A stretch of DNA of 33,938 nt from a bacterium. Its GTDB lineage: Bacteria; Bacillota; Clostridia; Oscillospirales; Acutalibacteraceae. Each line of letters begins with the position of its first letter. Positions within the stretch are counted from its first letter, which is position 1. The DNA is taken from positions 1-33,938 of the forward strand of contig CAVFUV010000001.1 of NCBI GenBank assembly GCA_963625735.1, in the 5' to 3' direction. The notes below the pieces were generated by a model. It ran no database searches. It worked only from the letters and a program-made list of their open reading frames with translations, and had not been told where the DNA came from. The translations under genes and the position numbers were made by a program. Shown one piece after another: positions 2,651 through 32,213 of the stretch.

Positions 2651-2941
2651 GAATTAACAGTTAAGAATGAGTGACCGGTGGTCAGTATCCAGTGGCCGGT
2701 GACTAAGGAAGTCCTGCGGACTTGGATTATATAGCTTCGCCTCTGTTCAGAGTGGAGTGTAAAATGCGGAGTGTGGAGTCAGCTTCGCAAAAGGTGAGTT
2801 TATCGCCGGATTGCAACTGCATTGCGAAATTTGGGGCATTCAGCCGCTCGGAAGTGACATTCCTTTTAAGCAGAGCCAAACCTGATTTTCTTTGCCGGGG
2901 TGCCGGGGCAGCGGCCCGTCGCCGGCGCTCCTCGCCTCACC
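2651..2941 (+). repeat. composite modular intergenic element (heptads - stem-loop - box - GTGGAGT heptads - long GC-rich tail)
   Basis: Modules in order are GAATTAACAGTTAAGAAT, GTGACCGGTGGTCAGTATCCAGTGGCCGGTGAC, stem-loop AAGTCC-TGC-GGACTT (2709-2723), GGATTATATAGCTTCGC, GTGGAGT heptads, a second GCTTCGC, a module shared with 19888-19948, and a GC-rich tail. Confidence 0.85.
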
Positions 2942-3985
2942 TTATTTAAATCTCTTGAATATAGTCGCGAACATCTGGAAGAACTTCCTAAGCGCAAGAA
3001 TAATTCTTTGGAAGAAGCTTACGCTGTTTGTCGTGTCCTCGCTTGTCTTTGACTGTGCCGAAAGCCACGAAATAACACCCTCGGTGGGGTCTTCGAATGT
3101 AATCGTGTTGCCTGCGGCATCCTTTGTCGTTGTGTTTACATAGGGCATTGTGCCGTCGGACATATGCATATCATATGTTACGGCCTCCCACAGATAATGC
3201 TGAGCCTTGTCGGAGACGACATACTCACCGTTTGACCACTCCGTCTTGCGTGTGTAGTCGGCAAAAACAACATCGCTGAATGTGGTTATGCGTACACCCG
3301 TTTTGCGGTTTGTGGTGCTCTGAAGATAATTAAATGTCGTCATGGCATCCTCACTGCCCGCAAGAGGATAGGGGTCATTGTCACTTGCCATCATCCATAC
3401 GGATACCTTGCCGAGCTGGCTTAACTGAGAAGCCGAGGGCTGTGTAATCGACGCAAGAGGAAGTCCGGCGGCGAAGAAATCGGGATACTGCGCGAGCATC
3501 TCCCAGACCATTGTGCCGCCTGTCGAATAGCCGCCGATGTAAATGCGGTCGGTGTCAATGTGATCGGCATTCTGTGCTATAAAGGCATCGATAACCTTTT
3601 TGAGTGTGGAGCAGTCCGTGCCGTCCCAGTTATTCTGAGAATTGTTCGCACGTGGAGCAAGAAGGAAGCATCCGCCGGCATTCTCGAAACGGGCCTGATA
3701 TTCGTCACTTGCCCAGTTTGAAAATTCATACCAGCTTAACTGCTGACGCTTTATCTTGCCGCTGTTCATACCGTGCAGCCATATGAAAATGGGATACTTC
3801 GTTGTGTCGGAGTCACCCTTTACAGGTGAAAAATAAACATAGTCAATGTTTGCGTCGGAGTTTTTGCCGTCAAGCATTGTTTTGTTAAGGGCGTCCGTGC
3901 CCTGTGAAATCGAGACTGCGGATGCGGGCAATGCACACAAAACGAGCATAAACACCGCCAAAAATACGGAAATTGCCTTTTTCAT
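2942..3985 (-). CDS. secreted alpha/beta-hydrolase (esterase/depolymerase-like), paralog 2
   Basis: It is collinear and highly similar to the 1638..2630 product (signal peptide, GYSTGG). The codon at 3988 is TTG, so I prefer the ATG at 3985 after an AAGGAA SD. Confidence 0.85.
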   Translation of the reverse strand: MKKAISVFLAVFMLVLCALPASAVSISQGTDALNKTMLDGKNSDANIDYVYFSPVKGDSDTTKYPIFIWLHGMNSGKIKRQQLSWYEFSNWASDEYQARFENAGGCFLLAPRANNSQNNWDGTDCSTLKKVIDAFIAQNADHIDTDRIYIGGYSTGGTMVWEMLAQYPDFFAAGLPLASITQPSASQLSQLGKVSVWMMASDNDPYPLAGSEDAMTTFNYLQSTTNRKTGVRITTFSDVVFADYTRKTEWSNGEYVVSDKAQHYLWEAVTYDMHMSDGTMPYVNTTTKDAAGNTITFEDPTEGVISWLSAQSKTSEDTTNSVSFFQRIILALRKFFQMFATIFKRFK

Positions 3986-4154
3986 CAAAAATCATTCCTT
4001 TCGGAAAATATAATATGTATGATTATAACACACAACGAAAAATAAATCTACCGTTTTTGTTCTGTTTTAACAAATAAAACGAATAATGTTCTACAAAAAA
4101 TTTAATTTTACAGTTGAAAATCTATATTAAACATAATATAATAGAACCGTAAAT

Positions 4155-5916: not shown

Positions 5917-5952
5917 GCGGATGCGTAGAGATACGCATCCGCGGTTTTTTTA
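5917..5952 (+). terminator. intrinsic terminator of the metallophosphoesterase gene
   Basis: GCGGATGCGT-AGAGAT-ACGCATCCGC followed by T8. Confidence 0.9.
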
Positions 5953-6075: not shown

Positions 6076-6138
6076 GCGAAGCTTATAATCCAAGGCACTC
6101 CGTGCCTTCCGAAATTGTTAATTGTTAATTGTTAATTG
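6076..6138 (-). repeat. half element: AATTAAC heptads - stem-loop - GGATTATAAGCTTCGC
   Basis: Plus strand reads GCGAAGCTTATAATCC, then AAGGCAC-TCC-GTGCCTT, then CCGAAA, then (TTGTTAA)x3. Confidence 0.9.
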
Positions 6139-8236
6139 AAAATTTTACCGTACTGTCTGCCGGCGCATTGACAACCTCAAACCTATCATGCCAGTAAATC
6201 CCGAGGTTCTTTTTAAGCTCATCGCCGTCCTCAACAAGCACCTTTACATTGGCGTCGAACTGTGTTGTGTTCTGAATATACAGAACGCCGTCCCTAAGCC
6301 ATGCGTTTACATGATCGCATACGCTTACAATGTCACGTGACGGCACGACATACACACCCGGCATATCGGTCCATGTGAGCATCATGGCGACATGCGGCCA
6401 CGAGCAGGCACCGAAAATGTTTCCGCCGACATTCTTTTCGCCCTCCCAGTCGGAGGTGTTGACACGTTCGCATATTTCGGAATCCTTAAGCGGCACGCCC
6501 TTGCTTGTCATAACAGGCCTTTCGGGGTACGACACCGTCTGCGGCATAAAGTGGGCAATCTGTCTTGCCAGGTCAAGATATCTCTTGTCACCTGTCGCAC
6601 GGAATATTTTGATAAATGAAATGGGGCTTGATGTGCAAAGACCCGGTGCGGAGTGCTTGTTCTGAACATTTGCCCATACAGAACCGCAGGCCTTCACATC
6701 CAGTCTGCCCATCTCGCTTGTTTTCGGAAATTCATAATCATACGACTCAACCCAGCTTGCGACCTGATTTGCGGAGTCGATCATGCATTTAAGCCATCTG
6801 TCGCCGTCTGTTTCGTACAGATTTACAAAACTCTCCATAAGTGCCGCAGAGCTTTCGGAGTCGGGAGCCTGCAGTATTTCGCCGGGACCGCCTGTTGTAA
6901 CACCCTTAAGCGTTGCGTTCTTATAGAAGAACTCGCCTATCTCCCTCGCCGTGATAAGATACTTTTCGTCACCCGTCACATTGTACGCTGCACAGAGTCC
7001 CGCGGGAGCCATTGCACCGCTTGTGGAGTTGCCGACAACGATTTCACCTGTTTCGGTGTTGATAAACTGACCGAGCTGACCGTATCTGTTCCACAGAGTG
7101 ACAACCGCATCCGCCGCCGCTTTCGCGCTTTCACGGATTTTTTCGGGAACATCAATACCCATTTTTTCAAGTGCGCGGATTTCTCTGTAAAGGAAATATA
7201 TCATATCAACGTGCTTTCTTATAAGCACCATGTTGTATTTTCCGTCAAAGCTTGAGAATGCGTCGTCATAGACCTTGCCGTTGCTGTCGGCACAGCCGTA
7301 GAACCATCCGAGTTTGCTCTGCTCACGCGCGGCAAAGAGAAGTGTCTTTATGCTTCTCTCTTTTGTAAGAGCATCGCCCTCGCAGATTCCCGCAAGGCTT
7401 GTCATGCCGCCGCCGACCCAGCCCGCCTGCCATACACCGAAATGTGATGTTCTGCGGCCGTCCTGCGCGTCAAGAGTGTACATTTCAAGATTTTCGAGAT
7501 AATGCGTATCGTTAATCTGCTTTTCGGCAAGCTCCCAGAAGTGCGAAAACGGAAGATTGGCATGTGCCGTCTCGCTCGAAAAGTCATATCTTCTCGCAAA
7601 GAACTGTGAGAAAAGCTCCGGAATATCTTCGCAGTCGGATACATATATCTTGTGCGGAATTGTCGTAACATCGCCGTTTTTTACACTTAAGGGCTTATCC
7701 ATTGAAGGATTTTCTCTGCATGAGGGTACACCGTCATACCAGTGATAGACAAGACGTCTTTTTGAGGGTGCTCTTAAGCGGATTATAAGGTTGTCGCCGA
7801 GCTGATCAAGCGACACGCCGTGATTTAAGCCGTGGTCGCCCTGATTAAAGAACAGCATGAACGACTTTTTCTCTTTTTTGTTAAGTATGCATACGCACGG
7901 AGTTGACATATCACCGGTTGTGACATCCATAAAGGAGTCGCCGGTCTTGTTAAGGCGAGGCACCTGTGTCATGCGTGTCGGAACATCGACACCGAGCTCA
8001 TCCTCGTGGAACATTGGTGCGTAGTGACGGGGAACAGCCTCAAAACGGTTGCCGTCATAGGCACACGCCGGAATCATTATGTATGTGTCGGCAATCGGTG
8101 CGTTGAGTTTGAAATCAACCCAATAGCCTGCGTCGTCATTGTCGCAAAGTGCGGTAAAACGGGTCTCTTCCTCATTGAAAACAACACGAGTGCCGTTTTC
8201 GGGTCCGGAAAAACCCCTTGTAATTTCATAGGACAT
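6125..8236 (-). CDS. large cytoplasmic protein, possibly (alpha/alpha)6-barrel glycoside-hydrolase-like; function uncertain
   Basis: Long ORF with no signal peptide. I prefer the ATG at 8236 (MSYEIT...) after an AGGAGTGAG SD over 8275. The last codons and the TAA lie inside the heptad array at 6115-6138. Confidence 0.7.
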   Translation of the reverse strand: MSYEITRGFSGPENGTRVVFNEEETRFTALCDNDDAGYWVDFKLNAPIADTYIMIPACAYDGNRFEAVPRHYAPMFHEDELGVDVPTRMTQVPRLNKTGDSFMDVTTGDMSTPCVCILNKKEKKSFMLFFNQGDHGLNHGVSLDQLGDNLIIRLRAPSKRRLVYHWYDGVPSCRENPSMDKPLSVKNGDVTTIPHKIYVSDCEDIPELFSQFFARRYDFSSETAHANLPFSHFWELAEKQINDTHYLENLEMYTLDAQDGRRTSHFGVWQAGWVGGGMTSLAGICEGDALTKERSIKTLLFAAREQSKLGWFYGCADSNGKVYDDAFSSFDGKYNMVLIRKHVDMIYFLYREIRALEKMGIDVPEKIRESAKAAADAVVTLWNRYGQLGQFINTETGEIVVGNSTSGAMAPAGLCAAYNVTGDEKYLITAREIGEFFYKNATLKGVTTGGPGEILQAPDSESSAALMESFVNLYETDGDRWLKCMIDSANQVASWVESYDYEFPKTSEMGRLDVKACGSVWANVQNKHSAPGLCTSSPISFIKIFRATGDKRYLDLARQIAHFMPQTVSYPERPVMTSKGVPLKDSEICERVNTSDWEGEKNVGGNIFGACSWPHVAMMLTWTDMPGVYVVPSRDIVSVCDHVNAWLRDGVLYIQNTTQFDANVKVLVEDGDELKKNLGIYWHDRFEVVNAPADSTVKFSINN

Positions 8237-8283
8237 TTTTTCTCTCACTCCTAATCTTATCATCTTGCGGTACATTTTTTAAT

Positions 8284-8462
8284 TCATAATGTAGAATGCA
8301 TAATGCATAATTTCGGAAGACACTGCGTGTCTTGAATTATATTGCTTCGCTAATATGGAACTATTTTTTTAACACTAATTCACATTTCGCGAAGCTGTAT
8401 AAATTCAAAACGCTTTAGCGTTTTCCTTCATTATGCATTCTTAATTCTGCATTCTACATTTT
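8284..8462. repeat. complete palindromic element (two inverted half elements)
   Basis: Left half is GCATAAT/GTAGAAT heptads, AAGACAC-TGC-GTGTCTT and AATTATATTGCTTCGC. The centre is about 37 nt. Right half is GCGAAGCTGTATAAATT, AAAACGC-TTTA-GCGTTTT and the reverse-complement heptads. Confidence 0.9.
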
Positions 8463-9561: not shown

Positions 9562-9646
9562 TTTTTCGGATCTCCTTAAATTATATGTGAAAATTATTAT
9601 ACCCTTGCCAAAGCGTTTTTTCAATAGCAAATCGAAGAGACGAAAT

Positions 9647-9755
9647 AAATTAACAATTAACAATTAATAATTTACAATTTCGGAAGACACTGCGTGTCTT
9701 GTATTGAAAAAGCTTCGCAAAACAACTCCACACTCCACTCTCCACACTCCACACT
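9647..9755 (+). repeat. half element followed by ACTCCAC heptads
   Basis: Modules in order are TTAACAA-type heptads, CGGAAGACAC-TGC-GTGTCTTG, TATTGAAAAAGCTTCGC and (ACTCCAC)x4. Confidence 0.9.
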
Positions 9756-9816
9756 TGCGGCACGCGACATTTTCCGCACTTCCCACTCAACCACTCGTTT
9801 GCCGCACAATTTATGC

Positions 9817-12430: not shown

Positions 12431-12475
12431 CAGGGCTTTGCTGTGAGCGAAATGTACCGCTATTTGTGGTTTGAT

Positions 12476-12544
12476 GATATTTTAATGCTCCCGATGGGAA
12501 GAAAAATAGCAAAAGGTCTTGCAAAATTCGGGCTTATAGAGTAA
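12476..12544 (+). pseudogene. orphan 3'-terminal fragment (last 22 codons + stop) of the MurJ/SpoVB-like flippase gene
   Basis: It translates to DILMLPMGRKIAKGLAKFGLIE*. The 72 nt at 12476-12547 match the reverse complement of 20606-20677 at 70/72 positions. Similarity stops abruptly upstream. Confidence 0.8.
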
Positions 12545-12583
12545 AATGTTTTTTGTATCGCGTTAATGGGGAGGACAAAGATA

Positions 12584-13456
12584 ATGGTTGATAATTTTAC
12601 ATTCAAAGACAGCTATAATATGGATGACCTTGTTGAGATTATCGCAATCCTTCGTGCTCCCGGCGGTTGTCCGTGGGATGCCGAGCAGACGCATGAAAGC
12701 ATAAAGAAGAATTTTATCGAAGAGACATACGAAGTAATTGAGGCAATAAACAAAAAAAGTCCCGAAATGCTCCGTGAAGAGCTGGGTGATGTTCTTCTTC
12801 AGGTTGTTCTTCATACACAGATGGCGAGCGAAAACAACGCGTTTACATTTGACGATGTATGTGACGAGATATGCAAAAAGCTTATAATCCGTCATCCGCA
12901 TGTATTCGGTGATGTTACCGTCAGCGACACGGGCGAGGTGCTTAAAAACTGGGACGCGATAAAAATGCAGACCAAGAAGCAGAAAAGCGTGACGGAGAGC
13001 ATAGATTCCATTCCTCGTGAGCTGCCGTCACTTATGCGCGCACAGAAGGTTCAGCATAAGGCCGCAAAGGCGGGCTTTGACTGGGACAATATCGGCGGCG
13101 CACTCGACAAGGTGAGCGAGGAAGCAAGCGAAGTCAAAGAGGCTCTTGCCGAAAATGACAAGGAGCATGTGTCCGAAGAAATCGGCGATCTGCTTTTCGC
13201 CTGCGTGAATGTCTGCCGTTTTGCCGATACGGACGGTGAGGAAGCGCTTACAGCCGCAACGGATAAATTCGCCGCTCGCTTTGCGATAGTCGAACGCCTT
13301 GCAAAAGAACGTGGGATAGATATGAAGACAGCAACTATTGAGACGCTGGATGAGATGTGGGACGAAGCGAAGAAGCAATTGGCAATGGAAAAGGGGTCAG
13401 GTTCCGGGGGCCGGGGGTCGGGGAAGACACTGCGTGCCTTGGATTGTATGGCTTAG
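12584..13456 (+). CDS. mazG: nucleoside triphosphate pyrophosphohydrolase MazG, with repeat-derived C-terminal extension
   Basis: Two tandem MazG domains (EETYEVIEAI, ELGDVLLQV, EEASEVKEAL, EIGDLLFACV). The ATG at 12584 follows a GGGGAGG SD. The last 27 codons are read from the intergenic repeat element. Confidence 0.9.
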   Translation: MVDNFTFKDSYNMDDLVEIIAILRAPGGCPWDAEQTHESIKKNFIEETYEVIEAINKKSPEMLREELGDVLLQVVLHTQMASENNAFTFDDVCDEICKKLIIRHPHVFGDVTVSDTGEVLKNWDAIKMQTKKQKSVTESIDSIPRELPSLMRAQKVQHKAAKAGFDWDNIGGALDKVSEEASEVKEALAENDKEHVSEEIGDLLFACVNVCRFADTDGEEALTAATDKFAARFAIVERLAKERGIDMKTATIETLDEMWDEAKKQLAMEKGSGSGGRGSGKTLRALDCMA

Positions 13457-13501
13457 CTTTTTGCGAAGCCGACTCCACACTCCACACTCCACACTCCACA
13501 C
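13374..13501 (+). repeat. element copy 1 (AGCAATT/GGGGNCG heptads - stem-loop - box hairpin - ACTCCAC x4), overlapping the mazG 3' end
   Basis: Modules in order are AGCAATTGGCAATGG, GGGGTCAGGTTCCGGGGGCCGGGGGTCGGGG, AAGACAC-TGC-GTGCCTT, GGATTGTATGGCTTAGCTTTTTGCGAAGCC and ACTCCAC heptads. Confidence 0.9.
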
Positions 13502-13712
13502 TTTTAAACAGCTGACCGCTTAATTAAATTTGACAAAACGTCTTATGGTATTAGCAATCAGCAAATGGAAAAAGGGGTCGGGGTCGGGCCGGGAAAACAC
13601 TGCATACCTTGGATTATATGGCTTAGCTTTTTGCGAAGCCGACTCCACACTCCACACTCCACACTTTTAAACAGCTGACCGCTTAATTAAATTTGACAAA
13701 ACGCCTTATGGC
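13448..13712 (+). repeat. ~165-bp tandem duplication spanning element 3' half plus the hup upstream region
   Basis: The segment ATGGCTTAGCTTTTTGCGAAGCCG(ACTCCAC)nACTTTTAAACAGCTGACCGCTTAATTAAATTTGACAAAACGYCTTATGG occurs twice (13448-13548 and 13618-13711). The copies differ by one heptad and one SNP. Confidence 0.9.
13551..13665 (+). repeat. element copy 2 (decayed stem-loop, ACTCCAC x3)
   Basis: Same module order as copy 1. The stem-loop is degenerate (AAAACAC-TGC-ATACCTT). Confidence 0.85.
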
Positions 13713-14073: not shown

Positions 14074-14146
14074 TGCAGAATTAAGAATGCATAATGCATA
14101 ATGTCGGAAGTCCGCAAGACTTCCGAAATTGTTAATTGTTAATTAT
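14074..14146. repeat. minimal element: GCATAAT heptads - stem-loop GGAAGTC-CGCAA-GACTTCC - TTGTTAA heptads
   Basis: Read directly from the sequence, immediately after the hup terminator. Confidence 0.85.
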
Positions 14147-16134: not shown

Positions 16135-16256
16135 CAATTAGCAATGAGTGGAAGTGACCGGTATCCGGTGGGCAGTATCCGGTGGCTGAGGAAGGCACAC
16201 AGTGCCTTGGATTTATAAAGCTTCGCAAAAGGTAAGCTAATGATGAGCTTCGCAAA
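16114..16256 (+). repeat. element: AATTAGN heptads - GACCGGTATCCGGTGG-type repeats - stem-loop - GGATTTATAAAGCTTCGC - second GCTTCGC
   Basis: Stem-loop is AAGGCAC-ACA-GTGCCTT at 16192-16208. The element overlaps the ATPase stop codon. Confidence 0.9.
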
Positions 16257-19550: not shown

Positions 19551-20070
19551 GGGCGAGCGAAGCGAGCCTGAAGCCCGAGCCGACAGGCGAGGGCATGTCG
19601 CGAGGAGCGACAGCGACGAGCGAAGCCGAGCGAAGCGAGGCAAAGCCCGAGGAGGCGGCGTAAGCCGACGACGAGGGCACGGGCGGCGAGGAGAGCGACA
19701 GCGTCGACGAGCCGCAGGACGCGACGACGAACACCTGCCAACGGCAGGCGTAAGGAGGAGTGTCTCCCCGAGCGAAGCAGATTTGTGAGGGGCTGCCCGT
19801 GGCTGCCCTCATAAATCTGCTGAGCGGAGGGTGCCGTCCGGAATGTGGCTTCCGGCAGTACGCCATACGAAAGGCATGTCATTTTACTTGAAAGGAATGT
19901 CACTCCCGGGCGGCAAAGCGACCCGGATTTCGCAGCAAGCTTGCAATCAAGCAAAAAGCTTGCCTCTTGCGTTAGCTTACAATCCAAGTCCGCAGGACTT
20001 CCTTGTTTTCCCGGCCCCCGACCCCCGGTCCCCGGCCCCTGTCCAATTGCTAACTGCTAATTGCTGATTA
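19551..20070 (-). repeat. largest element copy: AGCAATT + GGGGNCG heptads - stem-loop - box - structured module - T-depleted GCGAAGC-rich tract
   Basis: On the plus strand, heptads lie at 20010-20068, stem-loop AAGTCC-GCA-GGACTT at 19986-20000, hairpins at 19777-19820 and 19935-19963, and the GCGARGC-rich tract at 19551-19740. Confidence 0.8.
19777..19820. other. 15-bp-stem hairpin (GCAGATTTGTGAGGG ... CCCTCATAAATCTGC) in the 716-bp spacer
   Basis: Direct complementarity with one G-T pair. The 14-nt loop contains the GGCTGCC direct repeat. Confidence 0.7.
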
Positions 20071-20605: not shown

Positions 20606-20677
20606 ATTTTACTCTATAAGCCCGAATTTTGCAAGACATTTTGCTATTTTTCTTCCCATCGGAAGCATTAAAATATC
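20606..20677 (-). repeat. right copy of the 72-bp inverted repeat (native flippase 3' end); partner at 12476-12547
   Basis: 70/72 identity in inverted orientation. Confidence 0.9.
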
Positions 20678-22381
20678 TTCCTTGGGGATAGAATGAGTCG
20701 CAAGCAGTGCAAGAACATATGTAACAATCGCCGCGAACACACCGGCAATCACGCCTAAATTGGCGGCGTTCAGCAGTCCGCCCAGCCCCTCTTCGGGCAA
20801 GAATCTGTTGTATGCGGCATCCACACCCCATGCGGCAATACCCGACAGTACAGCACAGAACAGCGGTTTTAAGAATGTGCCCATTATATCGTATTTCAGT
20901 CCCGTTTCTTTTTTCAGCACAACAAGACCGTATGCGACCATTATAATGTTGCACAGAATCGAGCCCAGAACCGCCCCCTGAATATTGATTGACGGAACGC
21001 TTACGATAAGAAAATTCGCGACAATTTTTACAATGGCGCCAATAGCCATTGCCTTTATCGGAACATCCGCACGGTTGACAGCCTGAAGCATGTTCGTTAT
21101 AGGCTGAGTAAGCGCAAGAAAAACAACCGACACGCCGTAAAGCATCAATATTGGTGCGATATACGGAATAGCCGGTGAAATAGTCTCGCTTGAGCCGTAT
21201 ATAAGCTCCAGAATATCATCGGCAAGGGCAACCATTCCGCACCCCGCCGGATACGCAATAAGCAATGTAAGACGAATGACGGAATCAACCGCCTTGTTTA
21301 CTTCTTCCCATTTTCTCTTTGTCCACGCGGCGGACAGAACCGGAATGGCACTGAGTCCCAGGGTTATCGTAAAAGTGGGAACAATATTTTTAATTTCTAT
21401 TACCGTATCATACGCGCCGTAAAGGTAATCCTTAAACGCCACGGCATCGGCGGCGGTGTAGCCCTGTGATGATACAATACCGGGATACATGGCGGCGACG
21501 GTGTCAAAATGCTCGCTTAATACCGCCATAAGACGGTTCGGTATTACCCAGTTGTCAATAAGCGTTGTAACGTTGAATATAAGAGAGCTTACGGCAATCG
21601 GTATCGCTATTTTCATAAGCTCCTTTGAAAGAGCGCCGAATGACAGTGCGTCGGGCGAAGCGTCAAGCTCCCCTTGCGTGATAAGATTTTTTTCAAAGCG
21701 GTGACGGAGCATCAGATACAAAAGCCCCATCAAAGAACCTATCGTCACTCCGGCAATTGCCGCCGCCGCGGACCACGCCTGAACCTTTTCGGTTACTATC
21801 GTATTGAGATACGGAATTTTATCGGCAAATGTCGCACCCGTTCCGACGACGACGTTTATTAAGAGCCAGCCGAAAATAAGCTTGCCGCCGGCTTCAAACA
21901 CCTGCGATATGGCGGATGGGGTCATATTTCCGAGTCCCTGATAATAGCCGCGGTAGCCGCTCATCACACAGCAGAAAAACAGTGACGGAGCAATCGCGAG
22001 AATTGCCGGCACGGCGTTTAACACACCGTCTGACTGCGACGACGCAAACGGCACGGCAAGCACCGCTATAAGCACCATGCCCACAACGCCGAAGAGCGAG
22101 AAAAGCAGGACGGAAACGTTAAACAGCTTCTTGACATCCTTATATCTGCCCTCAGCCGCACGGGACGCCACCATTTTTGAAACTGCAGTCGGCAGCCCCG
22201 CCAGGGCTATTGTGTAAATGGGCGTATAGATATTGTATGCAGTGGCATAATAGCTCTTGCCCTCAAGCCCTATCTGATACGTAACATAGACCTTAAAGAA
22301 AATGCCTATTATTTTAACGGCCAATATCGCGAGCGACAGAATTAAAGCGCCGTTTAATACCGATTGTGATTTTTTTGCCAT
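20609..22381 (-). CDS. MOP-superfamily flippase (MurJ/SpoVB-like polysaccharide biosynthesis protein)
   Basis: 590-aa protein with about 14 TM segments and an N-terminus typical of SpoVB/MurJ-like proteins. GGAGG SD upstream. Confidence 0.85.
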   Translation of the reverse strand: MAKKSQSVLNGALILSLAILAVKIIGIFFKVYVTYQIGLEGKSYYATAYNIYTPIYTIALAGLPTAVSKMVASRAAEGRYKDVKKLFNVSVLLFSLFGVVGMVLIAVLAVPFASSQSDGVLNAVPAILAIAPSLFFCCVMSGYRGYYQGLGNMTPSAISQVFEAGGKLIFGWLLINVVVGTGATFADKIPYLNTIVTEKVQAWSAAAAIAGVTIGSLMGLLYLMLRHRFEKNLITQGELDASPDALSFGALSKELMKIAIPIAVSSLIFNVTTLIDNWVIPNRLMAVLSEHFDTVAAMYPGIVSSQGYTAADAVAFKDYLYGAYDTVIEIKNIVPTFTITLGLSAIPVLSAAWTKRKWEEVNKAVDSVIRLTLLIAYPAGCGMVALADDILELIYGSSETISPAIPYIAPILMLYGVSVVFLALTQPITNMLQAVNRADVPIKAMAIGAIVKIVANFLIVSVPSINIQGAVLGSILCNIIMVAYGLVVLKKETGLKYDIMGTFLKPLFCAVLSGIAAWGVDAAYNRFLPEEGLGGLLNAANLGVIAGVFAAIVTYVLALLATHSIPKEDILMLPMGRKIAKCLAKFGLIE

Positions 22382-22414
22382 GAGGACCTCCGAGGTATTA
22401 CTTTGGTTAAGAAT

Positions 22415-22443
22415 ATAATACAGCTTGCTTTAGAATATATCAA
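22415..22443 (-). promoter_or_regulatory. candidate promoter of the flippase gene
   Basis: TTGATA-17 nt-TATTAT on the minus strand, abutting the phased array. Confidence 0.5.
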
Positions 22444-22622
22444 AGAACTTTCAAAACTTTTAAAATGATTTTAAAAGTTTCAAAGAGATTTTCAAAGTTT
22501 CAAAGAGATTTTCAAAGTTTCAAACAAATTTTCAAAAGTTTCAAAGAGATTTTAAGAGTTTCAAACACTTTTTCAAAACTTTCAAACGATTTTCAGAAGT
22601 TTTCAAATCATTTCAAAACTTA
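22441..22622. repeat. ~17 tandem ~10-bp units (TTTCAAAGNN / TTTTCAAAG), helically phased T/A-tract array
   Basis: TTCAAA cores recur every 9-11 bp from 22450 to 22610. The array lies directly upstream of the flippase -35 and begins at the helicase stop codon. Confidence 0.9.
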
Positions 22623-24745: not shown

Positions 24746-24951
24746 GTTAGCGGTTAGCAAGGAGCAGTGTCAATGTAGAATGTAGAATGCAGAATGCAGA
24801 ATTTCGGAAGACACTATGTGTCTTGAATTATATAGCTTCGCAATCATAAAAACATTTTTCTTACAAATAAACTAACATTCAGTGGAGCTTTATAATCCAA
24901 AACGCCTTGGCGTTTTCCTTCACTGCTCCTTGCTCCTTGCTCCTTGCTCAC
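24746..24951. repeat. palindromic element with GCAAGGAGCAG outer arms and ATGTAGA/ATGCAGA inner heptads
   Basis: Arms are 24757-24769 (GCAAGGAGCAGTG) and 24921-24951 (CACTGCTCCTTGC...). Stem-loops are AAGACAC-TAT-GTGTCTT and AAAACGC-CTTG-GCGTTTT. Boxes are GAATTATATAGCTTCGC and GGAGCTTTATAATCC. Confidence 0.9.
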
Positions 24952-24954
24952 TTT

Positions 24955-26724
24955 TTACAGCTTAATCTGCTCATTTATACTCTTCATAAAATCTATGTCC
25001 ACCTTCACAACCTCCCTGTCAAACGTCAGCAATCCGTTTGTTTCGTCCTCAACGTCGCTGACCTCGGTGTAGACAAGAGCGGAGAGGCCCTTTGAATAGA
25101 TAAGGGGCTTAAGTCTGTCAATATAAAGATGATGAAGAGCAGAAGAGAGCTTTTCCTTGTTTTTGAATATCTTATAGCCGAATGTCTTTTCGGTATTGAA
25201 ACGGTGTCCGTCAAGGCTCATTGAGTAGCCGCCGAACTCCGTCAGAGCTATTACACGGTTGTCGTCCTTATTGAGCTTCGGGAACACAAACGGCGTAAAA
25301 TAAATATGGAAGCTGTTTATGTCGCCGACACCCTGATCGTGCCAGCCGCTCGCGTGGTCAATTATTCTTGTGGGGTCTTTTTCACGGAAAAATCTCTCCG
25401 CCTTTACTGCGTCAAACTGCCCCCAGCCCTCATTAAACGGAACCCACATGCAGATTGAAACGGTATTGTAAAGCGTGTTTATCATACGCTCGGCATCCGT
25501 ATAATATTCCTTTCTGCCCTTGGGGTCATCACGGGAGAACAGCTTATAATTCTTCTCACCGTCCGACAGCACGCCGACTTTTTTTGTGCATGTCGCAAGC
25601 TGAAACGCCGGGCACACGGCAACAGCGGACTGCTTTACGGGATAGCCGCCGTTTACCATATCCTGCCACACAAGCATTCCGAGACGGTCGCAGTGATAAT
25701 ACCAGCGCAGAGGCTCAACCTTTATGTGCTTTCTGAGCATATTAAAGCCCATGTCCTTCATGGTCTGTATATCATAAATCATGGCCCCATCCGACGGTGC
25801 CGTATAAAGTCCGTCGCTCCAGTACCCCTGATCAAGAAGTCCATTCTGGAAATACGCTTCATTATTGAGCATAAGACGGGGCGTGCCGTTTATGTCCTTG
25901 CCGACGGAGAATTTACGCATGCCGAAATAGCATTTTACACTGTCATCGCCGTAGTTTATATATAAATCGTAAAGTTTGGGATTTTCGGGAGTCCAAAGTT
26001 CATAGTCATTAAGCGCTATGCAGGCGCTCTTGCCCGAAATCGTAAGAGCTGTCTTGACATTATCGCCGTCCTTTACGGTATACGTAACCGTGCCGGCATC
26101 CCCAACGGTGTCAAGCTCGACTTTTATTACATTTGTATCTATATCGGGGGTAAGACGAACAGACGCGATATGCGTTTTGGGCATTTCCTCAATCCACACC
26201 GTCTGCCATATACCGGACTGGGGTGTGTACCATATATTGCCCCGCTTTGAGGTCTGCTTGCCGCTTGCCTGTGAGCCTGTTTCCGACGGGTCGGTAACGG
26301 ACAGAGTAAGCTCGTTTTCACCGTCTTTTACTATATCGGAAATATCAAACTCAAACGGATAATAGCCGCCCTCGTGCGTGCCGAGAACAGTACCGTTTAA
26401 CTTTACTTCGCACTTATAGTCAACCGCTCCGAAATGAAGCACAACCGTGTCATCTGTCTTTTTGAAATCAAACTTTTTTCTGTAATAGAGCGTATCATTC
26501 GGCGTCACGGTTTTTTCGACACCGCTCAGAATCGTCTCGGGACTGAAGGGCACAATTATTTCGCCCCGGTAATCCGCGAATTTCTCTTCAGTGGGATAAA
26601 TCGCGTAATCCCATTTGCCGTTAAGACAGATAAAGGAATTTCTCTCCATCTGCGGACGGGGGTAATCATTCAAAGGGCATTCTGTGTTGAGGGCCTTGCC
26701 CCAGCGTGTCAAAAGCTTTTCCAT
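24955..26724 (-). CDS. glycoside hydrolase family 2 enzyme (beta-galactosidase/glucuronidase-like)
   Basis: GH2 sugar-binding, Ig-like and TIM-barrel pattern (NGKWDY, FGMRKF, MLRKHIKVEP, WVPFNEGWGQ). No signal peptide. Confidence 0.85.
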   Translation of the reverse strand: MEKLLTRWGKALNTECPLNDYPRPQMERNSFICLNGKWDYAIYPTEEKFADYRGEIIVPFSPETILSGVEKTVTPNDTLYYRKKFDFKKTDDTVVLHFGAVDYKCEVKLNGTVLGTHEGGYYPFEFDISDIVKDGENELTLSVTDPSETGSQASGKQTSKRGNIWYTPQSGIWQTVWIEEMPKTHIASVRLTPDIDTNVIKVELDTVGDAGTVTYTVKDGDNVKTALTISGKSACIALNDYELWTPENPKLYDLYINYGDDSVKCYFGMRKFSVGKDINGTPRLMLNNEAYFQNGLLDQGYWSDGLYTAPSDGAMIYDIQTMKDMGFNMLRKHIKVEPLRWYYHCDRLGMLVWQDMVNGGYPVKQSAVAVCPAFQLATCTKKVGVLSDGEKNYKLFSRDDPKGRKEYYTDAERMINTLYNTVSICMWVPFNEGWGQFDAVKAERFFREKDPTRIIDHASGWHDQGVGDINSFHIYFTPFVFPKLNKDDNRVIALTEFGGYSMSLDGHRFNTEKTFGYKIFKNKEKLSSALHHLYIDRLKPLIYSKGLSALVYTEVSDVEDETNGLLTFDREVVKVDIDFMKSINEQIKL

Positions 26725-28344: not shown

Positions 28345-28544
28345 TAAAAAGTGAGCAAGGAGCAGGGAGCAGGGAGCAGTTAGGCATAGTGTGGAGCTTT
28401 ACAAAGTGTGGAGTGTGGAGAGTGGAGTGTGGAGTTACAGCTTCGCGAACGGTAAATGCAGTAAAAGAGCTTTAATGTAAGCGGAGCTTTATAATCCAAA
28501 ACGCTTTGGCGTTTTCCTTCATTGTTAATTGTTAATTGTTAATT
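28345..28544. repeat. element: GAGCAGG heptads - GTGGAGT heptads - GCTTCGCGAA - centre - GGAGCTTTATAATCC - stem-loop - TTGTTAA heptads
   Basis: Read directly from the sequence. Stem-loop is AAAACGC-TTTG-GCGTTTT at 28498-28515. Confidence 0.9.
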
Positions 28545-28621: not shown

Positions 28622-30073
28622 TCAGCCGGAAACGTATCTTTGATTTTTGCTTTTAGGCTTATCCGGAATTGTCATTTTCAGACGGCCGTCAAGAATAAGG
28701 GGACTTACATACTGCTGCATTGCATAAAATGTTGTTTTAACACCGAGAAAATCCGCAATTTCCTGCCGTGAACGAGGCACAGTGCAAAATGCAATAAGTC
28801 TCTCTGCTTCGTCATCGCTTTCGATATCGTTATTTTGATTTTTGCTACCGTTATAAAATGTCACAACAAACTCGTTGCGGCGGTTTTCAAATACAGGTTC
28901 GGGGAGTCCGTATTCCTTCATGGCGTTTCGCATTGTGGGAATACCCGAATATCGATGCTCCGCAGATGTCAGCGTTTCTGCTATTACCGCAAGTGCGGGA
29001 TTCCTGAGATCCGGCTTTGCGATGCCGAGCTGTTCAATACTCATTCTGCCGTAAAGACCGCCGGGAGAGTGTATTTCCACACGGTCAGAGAAAAAATCTA
29101 TCTGTACGGGAGTGCCCTCGGTATAAATGCTGTAATCTCTGTGCATAACGGCGTTTAATATCGCTTCTCTTAATGCATCTATCGGATATTCGGTTATATC
29201 GGTTCTTTTTGCCGTTTCCCTGCTTATTATCGTTCTTGTTTTCATATTGCGGCGGCAGAAATTAAGTGCTTCCTCAACCATCTCGGGAATTGTGCCGTCA
29301 ATTCGTTTGTTATCGACAAACCGTGCGCTGTCGTTATCGGTATCCCCTATCTGCGTTCCGGGGACAACAATCGCGGTTATGCAAAGCTGCGGAAAAAATC
29401 CCTGAGGATATATTCCGAAATTAAGGACCGCCGCCAGAGTGGGTACGCCGTCACGTGTTATATTCAGAAGCTCAAGAGCCTGTTTTTCGGGAAGTCTTGA
29501 AAATCCCGGTCTGTCGACACGCATTCCGGCAATATATGCGTCCACCTTGTTTTTGTCGAGCAGATTTATGTCTGCTCTTTCAACGGGGCGTTCATCGTCA
29601 TGCAGATGCTTTCTGAATGCTTCAAAACTGTAAAGCTCATAGTCGGTCATCGGCAAATCCGCATCGCCGACCCTTATATATGAACCCTTTGTTCTGCCTG
29701 CACCTCTGTAATAACACGGGCGTTCGGAAATGTCAATCGCCGGAATTTCGGCGGCACATACCGTTTTGCCGTTATAATCGGTCAAAGTGAACACCGCTCT
29801 TACAACAGGCTCCATCTGCAGACACTGCTCGGTAACCTTTTTCTGCAGGTCCTGAGGATTATAGACACCGACAACCTCATAGCCGGCATTTTCATCAATG
29901 CCGAATATTATCACACCGCCGCTGTCCTGATTTGAAAAGCTCGACAATGTATCATACAGCTTTTTCGGACAGTCTGTGTGTGCGGTCTTAAGCTCAACAG
30001 TCTGTTCCTCCGCCTTCTGTCGGCAGATTCTGTTTATAAGTTCGATAAGATCTTCGGTTAACAAGCGGATCAC
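28622..30073 (-). CDS. AlbA_2/Schlafen-like DNA-binding domain + HATPase_c_4-like domain + C-terminal wHTH protein (often annotated as a RecG-like ATP-dependent DNA helicase)
   Basis: The N-terminus E..ELK......CPKKLYDTLSSFSNQDSGGVIIFGIDE is typical of AlbA_2. GTG start at 30073 with a short SD spacing. Confidence 0.75.
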   Translation of the reverse strand: MIRLLTEDLIELINRICRQKAEEQTVELKTAHTDCPKKLYDTLSSFSNQDSGGVIIFGIDENAGYEVVGVYNPQDLQKKVTEQCLQMEPVVRAVFTLTDYNGKTVCAAEIPAIDISERPCYYRGAGRTKGSYIRVGDADLPMTDYELYSFEAFRKHLHDDERPVERADINLLDKNKVDAYIAGMRVDRPGFSRLPEKQALELLNITRDGVPTLAAVLNFGIYPQGFFPQLCITAIVVPGTQIGDTDNDSARFVDNKRIDGTIPEMVEEALNFCRRNMKTRTIISRETAKRTDITEYPIDALREAILNAVMHRDYSIYTEGTPVQIDFFSDRVEIHSPGGLYGRMSIEQLGIAKPDLRNPALAVIAETLTSAEHRYSGIPTMRNAMKEYGLPEPVFENRRNEFVVTFYNGSKNQNNDIESDDEAERLIAFCTVPRSRQEIADFLGVKTTFYAMQQYVSPLILDGRLKMTIPDKPKSKNQRYVSG

Positions 30074-30094: not shown

Positions 30095-30290
30095 CAAAAT
30101 TATTTTGTTAAATCAAGTATTTCCGCAAAATCTGTTTGTTAATTTTTTGCGGAAATTTTGCAGATTTCAAATTTCAGCAAAATCATTTTGCAGATTTTTT
30201 GTTAATTCGCAATTTTTGCAAAGTCACTTTGCAGAAATTTTGCGGAAATTTTGTTAATTTAAGATTTTTGCAAAATTACCGTCAGTTTTC
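30095..30290. repeat. ~10-11-bp phased array of TTTTGC(A/G)GA / TTTTGTTAAT units with internal inverted repeats
   Basis: TTTTG cores lie at about 30104, 30134, 30146, 30157, 30186, 30197, 30214, 30228, 30238, 30249 and 30266. TTCCGCAAAA (30121) and TTTTGCGGAA (30146) form a perfect 10-bp inverted repeat. Confidence 0.85.
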
Positions 30291-30362: not shown

Positions 30363-30460
30363 GCGAAGCTTTATAATGCAAGACACGCAGTGTCTTCCTC
30401 GGTGCCCCGGCCCCCGACCCCCGGTCCCCGGCCCCTTTTCATTGCTAATTGCCAATTGCC
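30363..30460 (-). repeat. element: GCAATTN heptads - GGGGNCG heptads - stem-loop - box, overlapping the DUF4091 gene 3' end
   Basis: Plus strand reads GCGAAGCTTTATAAT, then AAGACAC-GCA-GTGTCTT, then CCCCGGN heptads, then ATTGCYA heptads. Confidence 0.9.
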
Positions 30461-32103: not shown

Positions 32104-32213
32104 GTGTGGAGTGTGGAAAGTGGAGTGTGGAGTTGGCTACGCAAAAGGCGAAGCTATATAATTCAAAACGCTTCAGCGTTTTCCTCAGCCCCCGGCCCCT
32201 GCCCCCGGGCCCT
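32104..32213 (-). repeat. element: GTGGAGT heptads - GGCTACGCAAAAGGCGAAGC hairpin - TATATAATT - stem-loop - GCCCCNG heptads
   Basis: Stem-loop is AAAACGC-TTCA-GCGTTTT at 32164-32181. The element lies in a divergent promoter region. Confidence 0.9.

Follow-up and report, generated by a model that had tools for sequence, protein, structure and literature searches.

Stem-loops of a modular intergenic repeat family in an Acutalibacteraceae genome keep their pairing while sequence, loops and neighbouring modules change

The 33,938-nt window analysed here (positions 1 to 33,938 of contig CAVFUV010000001.1, assembly GCA_963625735.1) is contig C1 of a metagenome-assembled genome (MAG) of an Acutalibacteraceae bacterium, referred to below as G000, which comprises 2.28 Mb in 329 contigs and is 94% complete. 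The Ffh protein of the window has its nearest counterparts in Acutalibacteraceae and Oscillospiraceae MAGs from gut and rumen. Scattered through the contig are copies of a short stem-loop, the best-conserved part of an abundant and rapidly changing family of intergenic repeats in some uncultured gut Clostridia; one full element lies at 8284-8462. Our results establish that the ability of the two hairpin arms to pair is kept while their sequence, the loop and the neighbouring modules change. We consider it probable, though by no means assured, that the stem-loop forms the core, constrained in its structure, of a mosaic intergenic repeat similar to the repetitive extragenic palindromes (REPs) and bacterial interspersed mosaic elements (BIMEs) of Escherichia coli, and that the folded form is a single strand, most likely of DNA.

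The repeat is built of half-elements. A half-element starts with four to five tandem 7-nt units and continues with a 5-nt linker (xTCGG or xAAGG), a hairpin of 6-7 bp, the box GGATTATAAA and the motif GCTTCGC, and a full element of about 180 bp consists of two half-elements joined centre to centre over a variable spacer of 39-40 nt. The element at 8284-8462, which as a whole folds with -66.9 kcal/mol (z -9.15) and whose two arrays happen to be complementary, is made up of the following parts:

8287-8311, plus strand: outer tandem array of 7-nt units (AATGTAG/AATGCAT class), left half
8312-8316, plus strand: linker TTCGG
8317-8333, plus strand: hairpin AAGACAC-TGC-GTGTCTT (type ACAC), dG -7.2 kcal/mol as RNA and -4.9 kcal/mol as DNA
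8334-8350, plus strand: box GAATTATATT and GCTTCGC, inner arm of the left half, with the reverse-complement motif GCGAAGC-TGTATAAATTC at 8389-8406
8351-8388, no strand assigned: central spacer of fixed length and variable sequence, about 55% identical to its ortholog in the related genome G013, the flanking modules being 90-100% identical
8389-8406, minus strand: GCGAAGC and box' TGTATAAATTC, inner arm of the right half
8407-8424, minus strand: hairpin AAAACGC-TTTA-GCGTTTT (type ACGC), unlike its partner at 8317
8425-8460, minus strand: linker' CCTTC and an outer array of the ATTATGC class that complements the array of the left half

Evidence for a constraint on pairing comes from the genome-wide association of the two arms. 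A scan for hairpins with no more than two mismatches to any of four types, and with the downstream box required, retrieved about 519 oriented copies from G000, 439 of which (85%) are perfect and fall into four self-complementary types (AAGTCC, 165 copies; AAGACAC, 114; AAGGCAC, 92; AAAACGC, 68). When 5' and 3' arms were classified separately at sites located by the downstream anchor alone, 414 arm pairs among the four main types were matched and 12 chimeric, where free assortment predicts 118 matched pairs (Cramer's V 0.96); chimeric pairs are about 35 times rarer than under free assortment, and half-step chimeras are infrequent (AAGACAC/GTGCCTT seven times, AAGGCAC/GTGTCTT twice). Compensated changes affect eight stem positions, corresponding to at least five independent variants as compared to 0.2 expected (P = 2e-6): AAAACAC/GTGTTTT, AAGGTAC/GTACCTT, AAGTCT/AGACTT, GAGACAC/GTGTCTC and AAAGCAC/GTGCTTT. 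Per-site variability is 1-2% in the stems, 10-51% in the loops and 25-43% in the flanks. A covariation check, run as a pair count on 123 distinct stem-loop sequences, found 92.9% of cells to be paired, where shuffles give 77.4% (0/500), and a covariation score of 0.432 versus 0.144, with double-sided changes in five of the seven pairs; sliding the partners against each other drops pairing to 16-48%. The first-pass annotation of the window had taken paired arm changes as a sign of selection on secondary structure, and arm association, compensated variants and the orthologous sites described below all support it in this. The opposite outcome, independent subfamilies without an excess of compensatory over single-sided change, was looked for and is not what we found. 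It has to be added that raw counts in this one genome favour one-sided over compensated variants, since within types 92 stem positions carry one-sided changes (31 A·C, 22 G·T and 39 other mismatches) as opposed to the eight compensated ones.

The two arms stay together in a setting in which the other modules are reshuffled. Hairpin type and adjoining array class, and likewise the linker, are nearly independent of one another (V 0.16), and every type occurs with every array class, so that the types are not whole-element lineages.

How, then, would both arms come to change together? Two related MAGs, G013 (97% complete, flanking genes about 90% identical to G000) and G354 (about 95% identical), allow the same sites to be compared. 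Of 221 orthologous intergenic regions in G000 and G013, 144 are without the module, 38 have it in G000 only, eight in G013 only and 31 in both, and a different hairpin type at the same site is frequent. At 9684, for instance, array, linker and GCTTCGC are kept and AAGACAC-TGC-GTGTCTT is swapped for AAGTCC-TGC-GGACTT in G013, and the slot of the hairpin at 14106 is there occupied by a different element. The comparison with G354 covered 61 G000 hairpins in 199 orthologous regions, of which 27 with too-different flanks and one unaligned hairpin were set aside. Among the remaining 33, 16 are identical, nine differ in the loop only, six have changed in both arms with pairing kept (one of these being a switch from 7 to 6 bp) and two have changed on one side. 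The loop differs in 15 of the 33, usually alongside the arms when the arms change. This concerted change of arms and loop suggests that a new variant is in the main passed on as a complete stem-loop cassette, copied in from another element, and the simplest reading of the aligned sites is that most concerted changes reflect such replacement, with removal of products that do not pair, rather than two point mutations.

The first-pass annotation had listed 15 stem-loops in the window. All of them are present with the arms named there, and their starting positions are correct except for two offsets of 1 nt (9684 instead of 9685, and 32165 instead of 32164); the conserved flanks it described were recovered too, as xTCGG or xAAGG on the 5' side and as GRATTATAAA-GCTTCGC on the 3' side. 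Two hairpin patterns match the window seven and four times and do not match any of 100 dinucleotide-preserving shuffles. In addition to the two hairpins of 8284-8462 the window contains:

2709-2723, plus strand: hairpin AAGTCC-TGC-GGACTT (type TCC)
6092-6108, minus strand: hairpin AAGGCAC-TCC-GTGCCTT (type GCAC); G354 ortholog AAGACAC-GCA-GTGTCTT with near-identical flanks
9684-9700, plus strand: hairpin AAGACAC-TGC-GTGTCTT between divergent predicted promoters; of the AAGTCC type in G013 (see above), unchanged in G354
13424-13440, plus strand: hairpin AAGACAC-TGC-GTGCCTT, chimera or half-step with one A·C mismatch; more decayed in G354 (3' arm GCACCTT)
13594-13610, plus strand: decayed duplicate AAAACAC-TGC-ATACCTT with four mismatches, inside a tandem duplication absent from G354
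14104-14126, no strand assigned: minimal element, hairpin TCGGAAGTC-CGCAA-GACTTCCGA set directly between two arrays; full two-hairpin element at the G354 site
16192-16208, plus strand: hairpin AAGGCAC-ACA-GTGCCTT; the orthologous G013 site is without the whole element
19986-20000, minus strand: hairpin AAGTCC-GCA-GGACTT
24808-24824, plus strand: hairpin AAGACAC-TAT-GTGTCTT, left half of the two-hairpin element 24766-24957
24899-24916, minus strand: hairpin AAAACGC-CTTG-GCGTTTT, right half of 24766-24957, 74 nt from its partner; loop 1 nt longer in G354
28498-28515, minus strand: hairpin AAAACGC-TTTG-GCGTTTT
30380-30396, minus strand: hairpin AAGACAC-GCA-GTGTCTT; G354 ortholog AAAACGC-TTTA-GCGTTTT
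32165-32182, minus strand: hairpin AAAACGC-TTCA-GCGTTTT

The arms GGAAGTC/GACTTCC at 14106 extend by TC/GA to the 9-bp stem of 14104-14126. The copies at 13424 and 13594 had been regarded as intermediates or decay products. This holds for 13424, which with its single mismatch is a half-step or a chimera, whereas 13594 is, in view of its four mismatches, a decayed copy and not an intermediate. The surroundings of these two copies differ between the genomes. The mazG reading frame continues through a heptad array and the 13424 hairpin (13374-13456), and in G013 the gene runs into AGCAATC-type heptads instead, without a hairpin. A short-form element and the hup promoter region are tandemly duplicated in the window (13416-13505 and 13586-13665); G354 is without this duplication; in its place an ACTCCAC/ACTCCAA array has expanded to about ten units.

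The arrays themselves are a prominent feature of the genome. G000 contains 596 arrays of period 7, whereas the other periods between 5 and 12 give at most 28 each. About seven sequence classes can be told apart among the period-7 arrays, which have a modal length of four units and are over-represented near gene ends, as is typical of intergenic heptamer repeats. The linker tracks the array class in that xTCGG follows AT-rich and xAAGG GC-rich arrays, and the class GGGGNCC matches a G-quadruplex motif as well. Arrays of GTGGAGT/ACTCCAC (about 167 in G000) are unlike the other classes, as they abut GCTTCGC without hairpin or box; they make up the second half of the short-form elements. A T-poor tract of GCGAAGC/GAGCGAAGC-like units lies at 19551-19740, and a large tandem repeat of GGCGAGGGCACAGGCCCGAGCAA units, partly masked and with none in G000, is found in G354 (contig C46, about 3600-4100) at the site orthologous to window position 5950 or so.

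The exact module pattern was found in G000 and G013 only, among 301 sampled genomes of the family. A covariance-model search of the genus gave saturating counts in three species, G000, G013 and G354, to which all four hairpin types are common, and, in 28 of the 55 remaining species, between 1 and 31 weaker matches. The copies of G013 are more decayed (54 of 95 perfect) and include the compensated variant AAGTTC/GAACTT. The low-copy relatives have heptad sequences of their own in an unchanged layout, and their stems are AAGACAC, AAGACGC/GCGTCTT (G016, G002, G021), AAAACGC (G370, G023), AAAACCC/GGGTTTT (G352) and AAGTCC (G010). In the other species 99.5% of stem cells are paired in an alignment fitted to the covariance model, with three pairs changed on both sides. 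Single compensated base-pair steps connect the stems into a network that leads from AAGGCAC through AAGACAC and then AAGACGC or AAAACAC to AAAACGC and AAAACCC; AAGTCC stands outside it. Since the compensated hairpin occurs at low copy number, and with differing arrays, in at least 10 other species, it appears to be old and maintained.

What is new here is the fixed spacing of the two hairpins and the near-exclusion of hairpin pairs of the same type. G000 has 94 pairs of half-elements arranged centre to centre, with hairpins 70-79 nt apart in 79 and mostly 72-75 nt. The spacer from GCTTCGC to GCGAAGC measures 39-40 nt in 59 of 72 elements, its sequence being variable with no more than a loose A(G/A)AC(A/G)ATTAA-like motif at the end. 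With the types grouped as AAGTCC, AAAACGC, and AAGACAC together with AAGGCAC, three of the 94 close pairs are of the same group where 31.7 are expected (P = 3e-13), and 91 are heterotypic; at distances above 200 nt both hairpins belong to one group in 15 of 33 pairs (Fisher P = 4e-8 against close pairs). All nine pairs in G013 are heterotypic as well, with a spacing of 71-75 nt in eight (74-75 nt in seven) and of 60 nt in one. As the two hairpins of an element are nearly always unlike, pairing between the two is precluded and both have to fold locally. Unlike left and right hairpins, and local hairpins kept without long-range arm pairing, had been pointed out at first reading for 8284-8462; the former is true of nearly all two-hairpin elements and the latter generalises to full elements. 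Moreover, the complementarity of the two boxes and of the spacer ends is not above the between-element level within elements but slightly below it, which indicates that long-range pairing beyond box and GCTTCGC is not selected and rules out element-specific spacer palindromy or box matching as a selected feature. Local hairpins are kept, and long-range pairing through the hairpins is avoided.

The pairing constraint, we suggest, is exerted on a strand that folds on itself, most likely a DNA strand, in the form of a single-stranded hairpin or a cruciform arm. The folded hairpin would be recognised by a putative protein responsible for copying, moving or recombining the elements, as the REP-associated tyrosine transposase (RAYT) is for the REP/BIME sequences of E. 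coli, and variants would spread as whole cassettes by gene conversion, recombination or re-insertion. Folding of RNA might then be a by-product or a secondary use in those elements that are transcribed. Genomic context, polarity and mismatches favour folded DNA, or an element that works in either orientation, over RNA, although they do not prove it.

Several results weigh against this proposal. Transcription probably reaches most of the copies that lie near gene tails, which gives room for a function at the RNA level. Comparison of filled and empty orthologous sites gave neither a clean empty site nor a target duplication, the flanks being too diverged to show them. The catalogue was selected for closeness to a palindromic consensus, so that its pairing percentages are inflated, yet the anchor-based tables agree with them; the copies are inter-related, so that shuffle tests overstate their independence; and every genome compared is a fragmented MAG. 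No partner enzyme came to light. Y1/RAYT proteins (Y1_Tnp, PF01797) were not found in G000 or G013 by a search that was positive in six of 14 reference genomes as a control, and the TnpB domain (PF07282, zinc ribbon) is absent from five genomes including the burst genomes G000, G013 and G354; a derivation from IS200/IS605 insertion sequences, as in PATE-like elements, was rejected on these grounds. The multi-copy protein families of the assembly contain no transposase, and a gene-bearing 'master' element was sought between inward-facing halves, where we found housekeeping genes only. A reverse transcriptase is present in G000 but not in G013 or G354 and is thus unrelated to the bursts. Finally, of 41 genomes of the genus 36 have genes of PF05635 (23S rRNA intervening-sequence protein) and the assembled G013 has none, so that these genes do not track or explain the bursts.

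Two of these gene families have a conspicuous setting in G000. The reverse-transcriptase gene stands beside a gene for an Avd-like four-helix-bundle protein, flanked by near-repeated coding segments (contig C85, 1399-2972), and this locus is probably a diversity-generating retroelement. One PF05635 gene (contig C71, 9275-9589) has a GGGGNCC array upstream and an AAGACAC hairpin with a CCCCGAC array downstream, and another (contig C86, 5600-6050) lies within inverted GCAATGT arrays in a type I restriction system, with the S gene on one side and the R gene on the other. Despite these flanking arrays, PF05635 genes were discarded as mobilisers because of the distribution given above. A bolder proposal, which we think unlikely, is that the hairpin pair and the heptad arrays are the ends of a previously unrecognised hairpin-dependent mobile or self-copying cassette which depends on an enzyme other than Y1/HUH, has the unlike hairpins as its left and right ends and is related to the heptad-bounded PF05635 cassettes.

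Could the constraint act on RNA instead? The central stem of box and GCTTCGC would then be a long hairpin of double-stranded RNA processed, for example, by RNase III, after which each of the unlike hairpins would be left as a cap to protect one product, the upstream message at its 3' end and the downstream message at its 5' end. Complementary arms and unlike hairpins would both be maintained by selection for RNA folding. Stabilisation of 3' ends is known from REP elements, and RNase J is blocked by stem-loops at 5' ends. In keeping with such a role, 219 of 381 half-elements face gene tails and 162 gene heads, at a median distance of 69 nt from stop codons, and the module is over-represented in convergent intergenic regions (31%). 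Downstream of gene 6125-8275 the element precedes the only good terminator and should therefore be in the 3' untranslated region, the full element 8284-8462 is very stable as RNA, and the heterotypic rule and the fixed spacing would suit local hairpins beside a cleavable stem; heptamer repeats of Xanthomonas are, moreover, mostly transcribed (PMC4692102). Other properties do not fit an RNA module. Divergent regions carry the module as often as tandem ones (18% and 17%), half-elements show no orientation preference in tandem contexts and their types no clear polarity relative to transcription, and the copy at 9640-9760 is upstream of both flanking predicted promoters, which are divergent and match at 11 of 12 positions each. 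There is no excess of G·U as a signature of RNA, with G·T and A·C mismatches numbering 22 and 31 overall and 11 each on the sense strand at gene tails, and with a trend at gene heads opposite to that expected of RNA; the consensus stems are all perfect Watson-Crick palindromes without a wobble pair. Folded as RNA, the stems are of low stability (-5.6 to -9.3 kcal/mol), and the whole window has no match in Rfam 15 at gathering score. On balance we regard an RNA module as possible but doubtful, both in its processing scheme and as the source of the selection. Intrinsic terminators were rejected as an explanation, since the weak stems are followed by GGAUUAUAAA or CCGAAA and no U-tract and lie at gene heads and within divergent regions too; separate canonical terminators adjoin elements, as at 5917-5942. 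The TATAAT-like box was likewise rejected as a promoter, since its spacer varies and a conserved -35 motif at the proper distance is lacking.

The palindromes might also be perfect without any functional constraint, merely through their youth and the way they are made, that is by recent bursts of a few master copies, intra-strand template switching or gene conversion that repairs quasi-palindromes, with close pairs of identical hairpins missing because long perfect palindromes are deleted or fail to assemble. That four discrete types account for 85% of copies, that one-sided variants outnumber compensated ones 92 to 8 within one genome, that concerted changes usually take in the loop as cassette copying would, and that copies decay at 13424, at 13594 and more widely in G013 is all consistent with this, and with 22% of contig ends falling in elements an assembly bias is conceivable. 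A young burst, however, would leave the loops uniform, whereas loops and flanks are highly variable next to almost invariant stems. The presence of all four types in G000, G013 and G354, the compensated hairpin in at least 10 further species with different arrays, and the rarity of chimeras, though adjacent modules recombine freely, also speak against it, and we hold both the absence of constraint and this account of the missing pairs to be improbable. A double-stranded operator for a dimeric DNA-binding protein, whose arms match since both half-sites fit the same protein, is highly improbable. Half-sites of 6-7 bp around a centre of 3-4 bp are typical of dimeric regulators and of some restriction/modification sites, and the flanks are conserved as well, but at least seven half-site sequences across the genus would demand as many specificities, orthologous sites swap types with no change in the neighbouring genes, the roughly 500 sites are unrelated to gene function or promoter position, and binding to duplex DNA gives no rationale for avoiding identical hairpins at a spacing of 74 nt.

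A constraint on folded DNA, the reading we prefer, invites comparison with REP/BIME sequences. The REPs of E. coli comprise three types, y, z1 and z2, which differ in ways that preserve complementarity, and in BIME-1 a y REP is paired with an inverted z1 REP over a long linker (PMC3333891). The present family shares with them a short hairpin set between conserved flanks and present in intergenic DNA in hundreds of copies, several types that keep complementarity, a mosaic of interchangeable flanking motifs and a copy number and composition that differ between close strains, and it resembles BIME-1 in its inverted, predominantly unlike hairpins (91 of 94 close pairs) and the set length of its linker. 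Different from REPs, however, it has no GTAG-like 5' foot and no obligatory stem mismatch such as REPs, which are imperfect palindromes, require for binding, its stems being perfect palindromes flanked by GG...G(G/A). The linker of BIME-1 is conserved in sequence with a site for integration host factor, whereas the one described here is conserved in length only; the outer arms are 7-nt tandem arrays, unlike those of BIMEs, and the stems are shorter (6-7 bp). In copies and doublets the family is also comparable to REPINs (REP doublets forming hairpins), with about 519 copies and 94 inverted doublets, 79 of which have their hairpins 70-79 nt apart. REPINs are inverted REP-like units at a preferred fixed spacing which form a long hairpin and make up within-genome populations with bursts in some lineages; their two units are copies of one REP (PMC3116915), whereas the hairpins here are almost never of the same type. 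G000 and G013 differ from both systems in having no RAYT, the gene of which usually has REPs at its sides, and the host is a Gram-positive gut anaerobe. As RAYT and foot motif were looked for and not found, we set the family apart from REP-RAYT systems.

Heptamer tandem repeats were reportedly described from cyanobacteria as short tandemly repeated repetitive (STRR) sequences by Mazel in 1990. GGGAATC/GGGGAYT repeats of Xanthomonas and Nostoc prefer about four units and form 70-75 convergent array pairs in Xanthomonas (PMC4692102), and TAACTGA repeats occur in Beggiatoaceae, cyanobacteria and Bacteroidetes (PMC4679880). The arrays of G000 agree with such repeats in the 7-nt unit, the preference for about four units, the location near gene ends and the convergent pairs. 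Those reports, however, describe arrays alone, without hairpin, box, GCTTCGC or covariation of arms (PMC4692102, PMC4679880). Here, in contrast, seven array classes within one genome are attached to one shared hairpin module.

MITEs (miniature inverted-repeat transposable elements) and modular repeats such as pneumococcal BOX and the Correia elements of Neisseria are small, non-coding, intergenic, palindromic and modular and occur in either orientation. The elements of G000 have these properties too, the palindromy being that of the element overall. They differ from MITEs in that no terminal inverted repeats match a known insertion sequence, no autonomous partner was found and the inner sequence is variable while sub-terminal modules are conserved; nor did the filled and empty orthologous sites show target-site duplications, for which the flanks are too diverged.

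The elements account for at least 1.8% of the genome and are present in about a fifth of its intergenic regions. Their location at 22% of contig ends makes them a main reason why these gut MAGs assemble poorly. With hundreds of copies, at least seven compensated stems in one genus and a fast turnover of modules, they amount to a natural experiment on how a hairpin is constrained amid reshuffling. The rule of unlike hairpins and the fixed spacer parallel BIME-1 in a distant phylum, which may reflect convergent constraints or a putative partner protein, and the family may link the heptamer repeats of bacteria with REP-like hairpins.

The window has some further repeats. The 3' end of a MurJ-like flippase gene has a 75-nt inverted duplicate, 96% complementary, just upstream of mazG (12473-12547 and 20606-20680). 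About ten tandem units of 20-21 nt (GATTTTCAAAGTTTCAAAGA-like), unrelated to the heptad family, occupy 22406-22607 between the flippase gene and a UvrD-like helicase gene, and imperfect repeats of the TTTGCGGAAATTTTGCAGATTT / TTTTGCAAA type, likewise separate from the heptad-hairpin elements, extend over 30100-30290 upstream of gene 28622-30073. Finally, two tandem paralogous genes for secreted esterase-like proteins (1638-2630 and 2942-3988, about 74% identical in nucleotide sequence) have a heptad-hairpin element between them.

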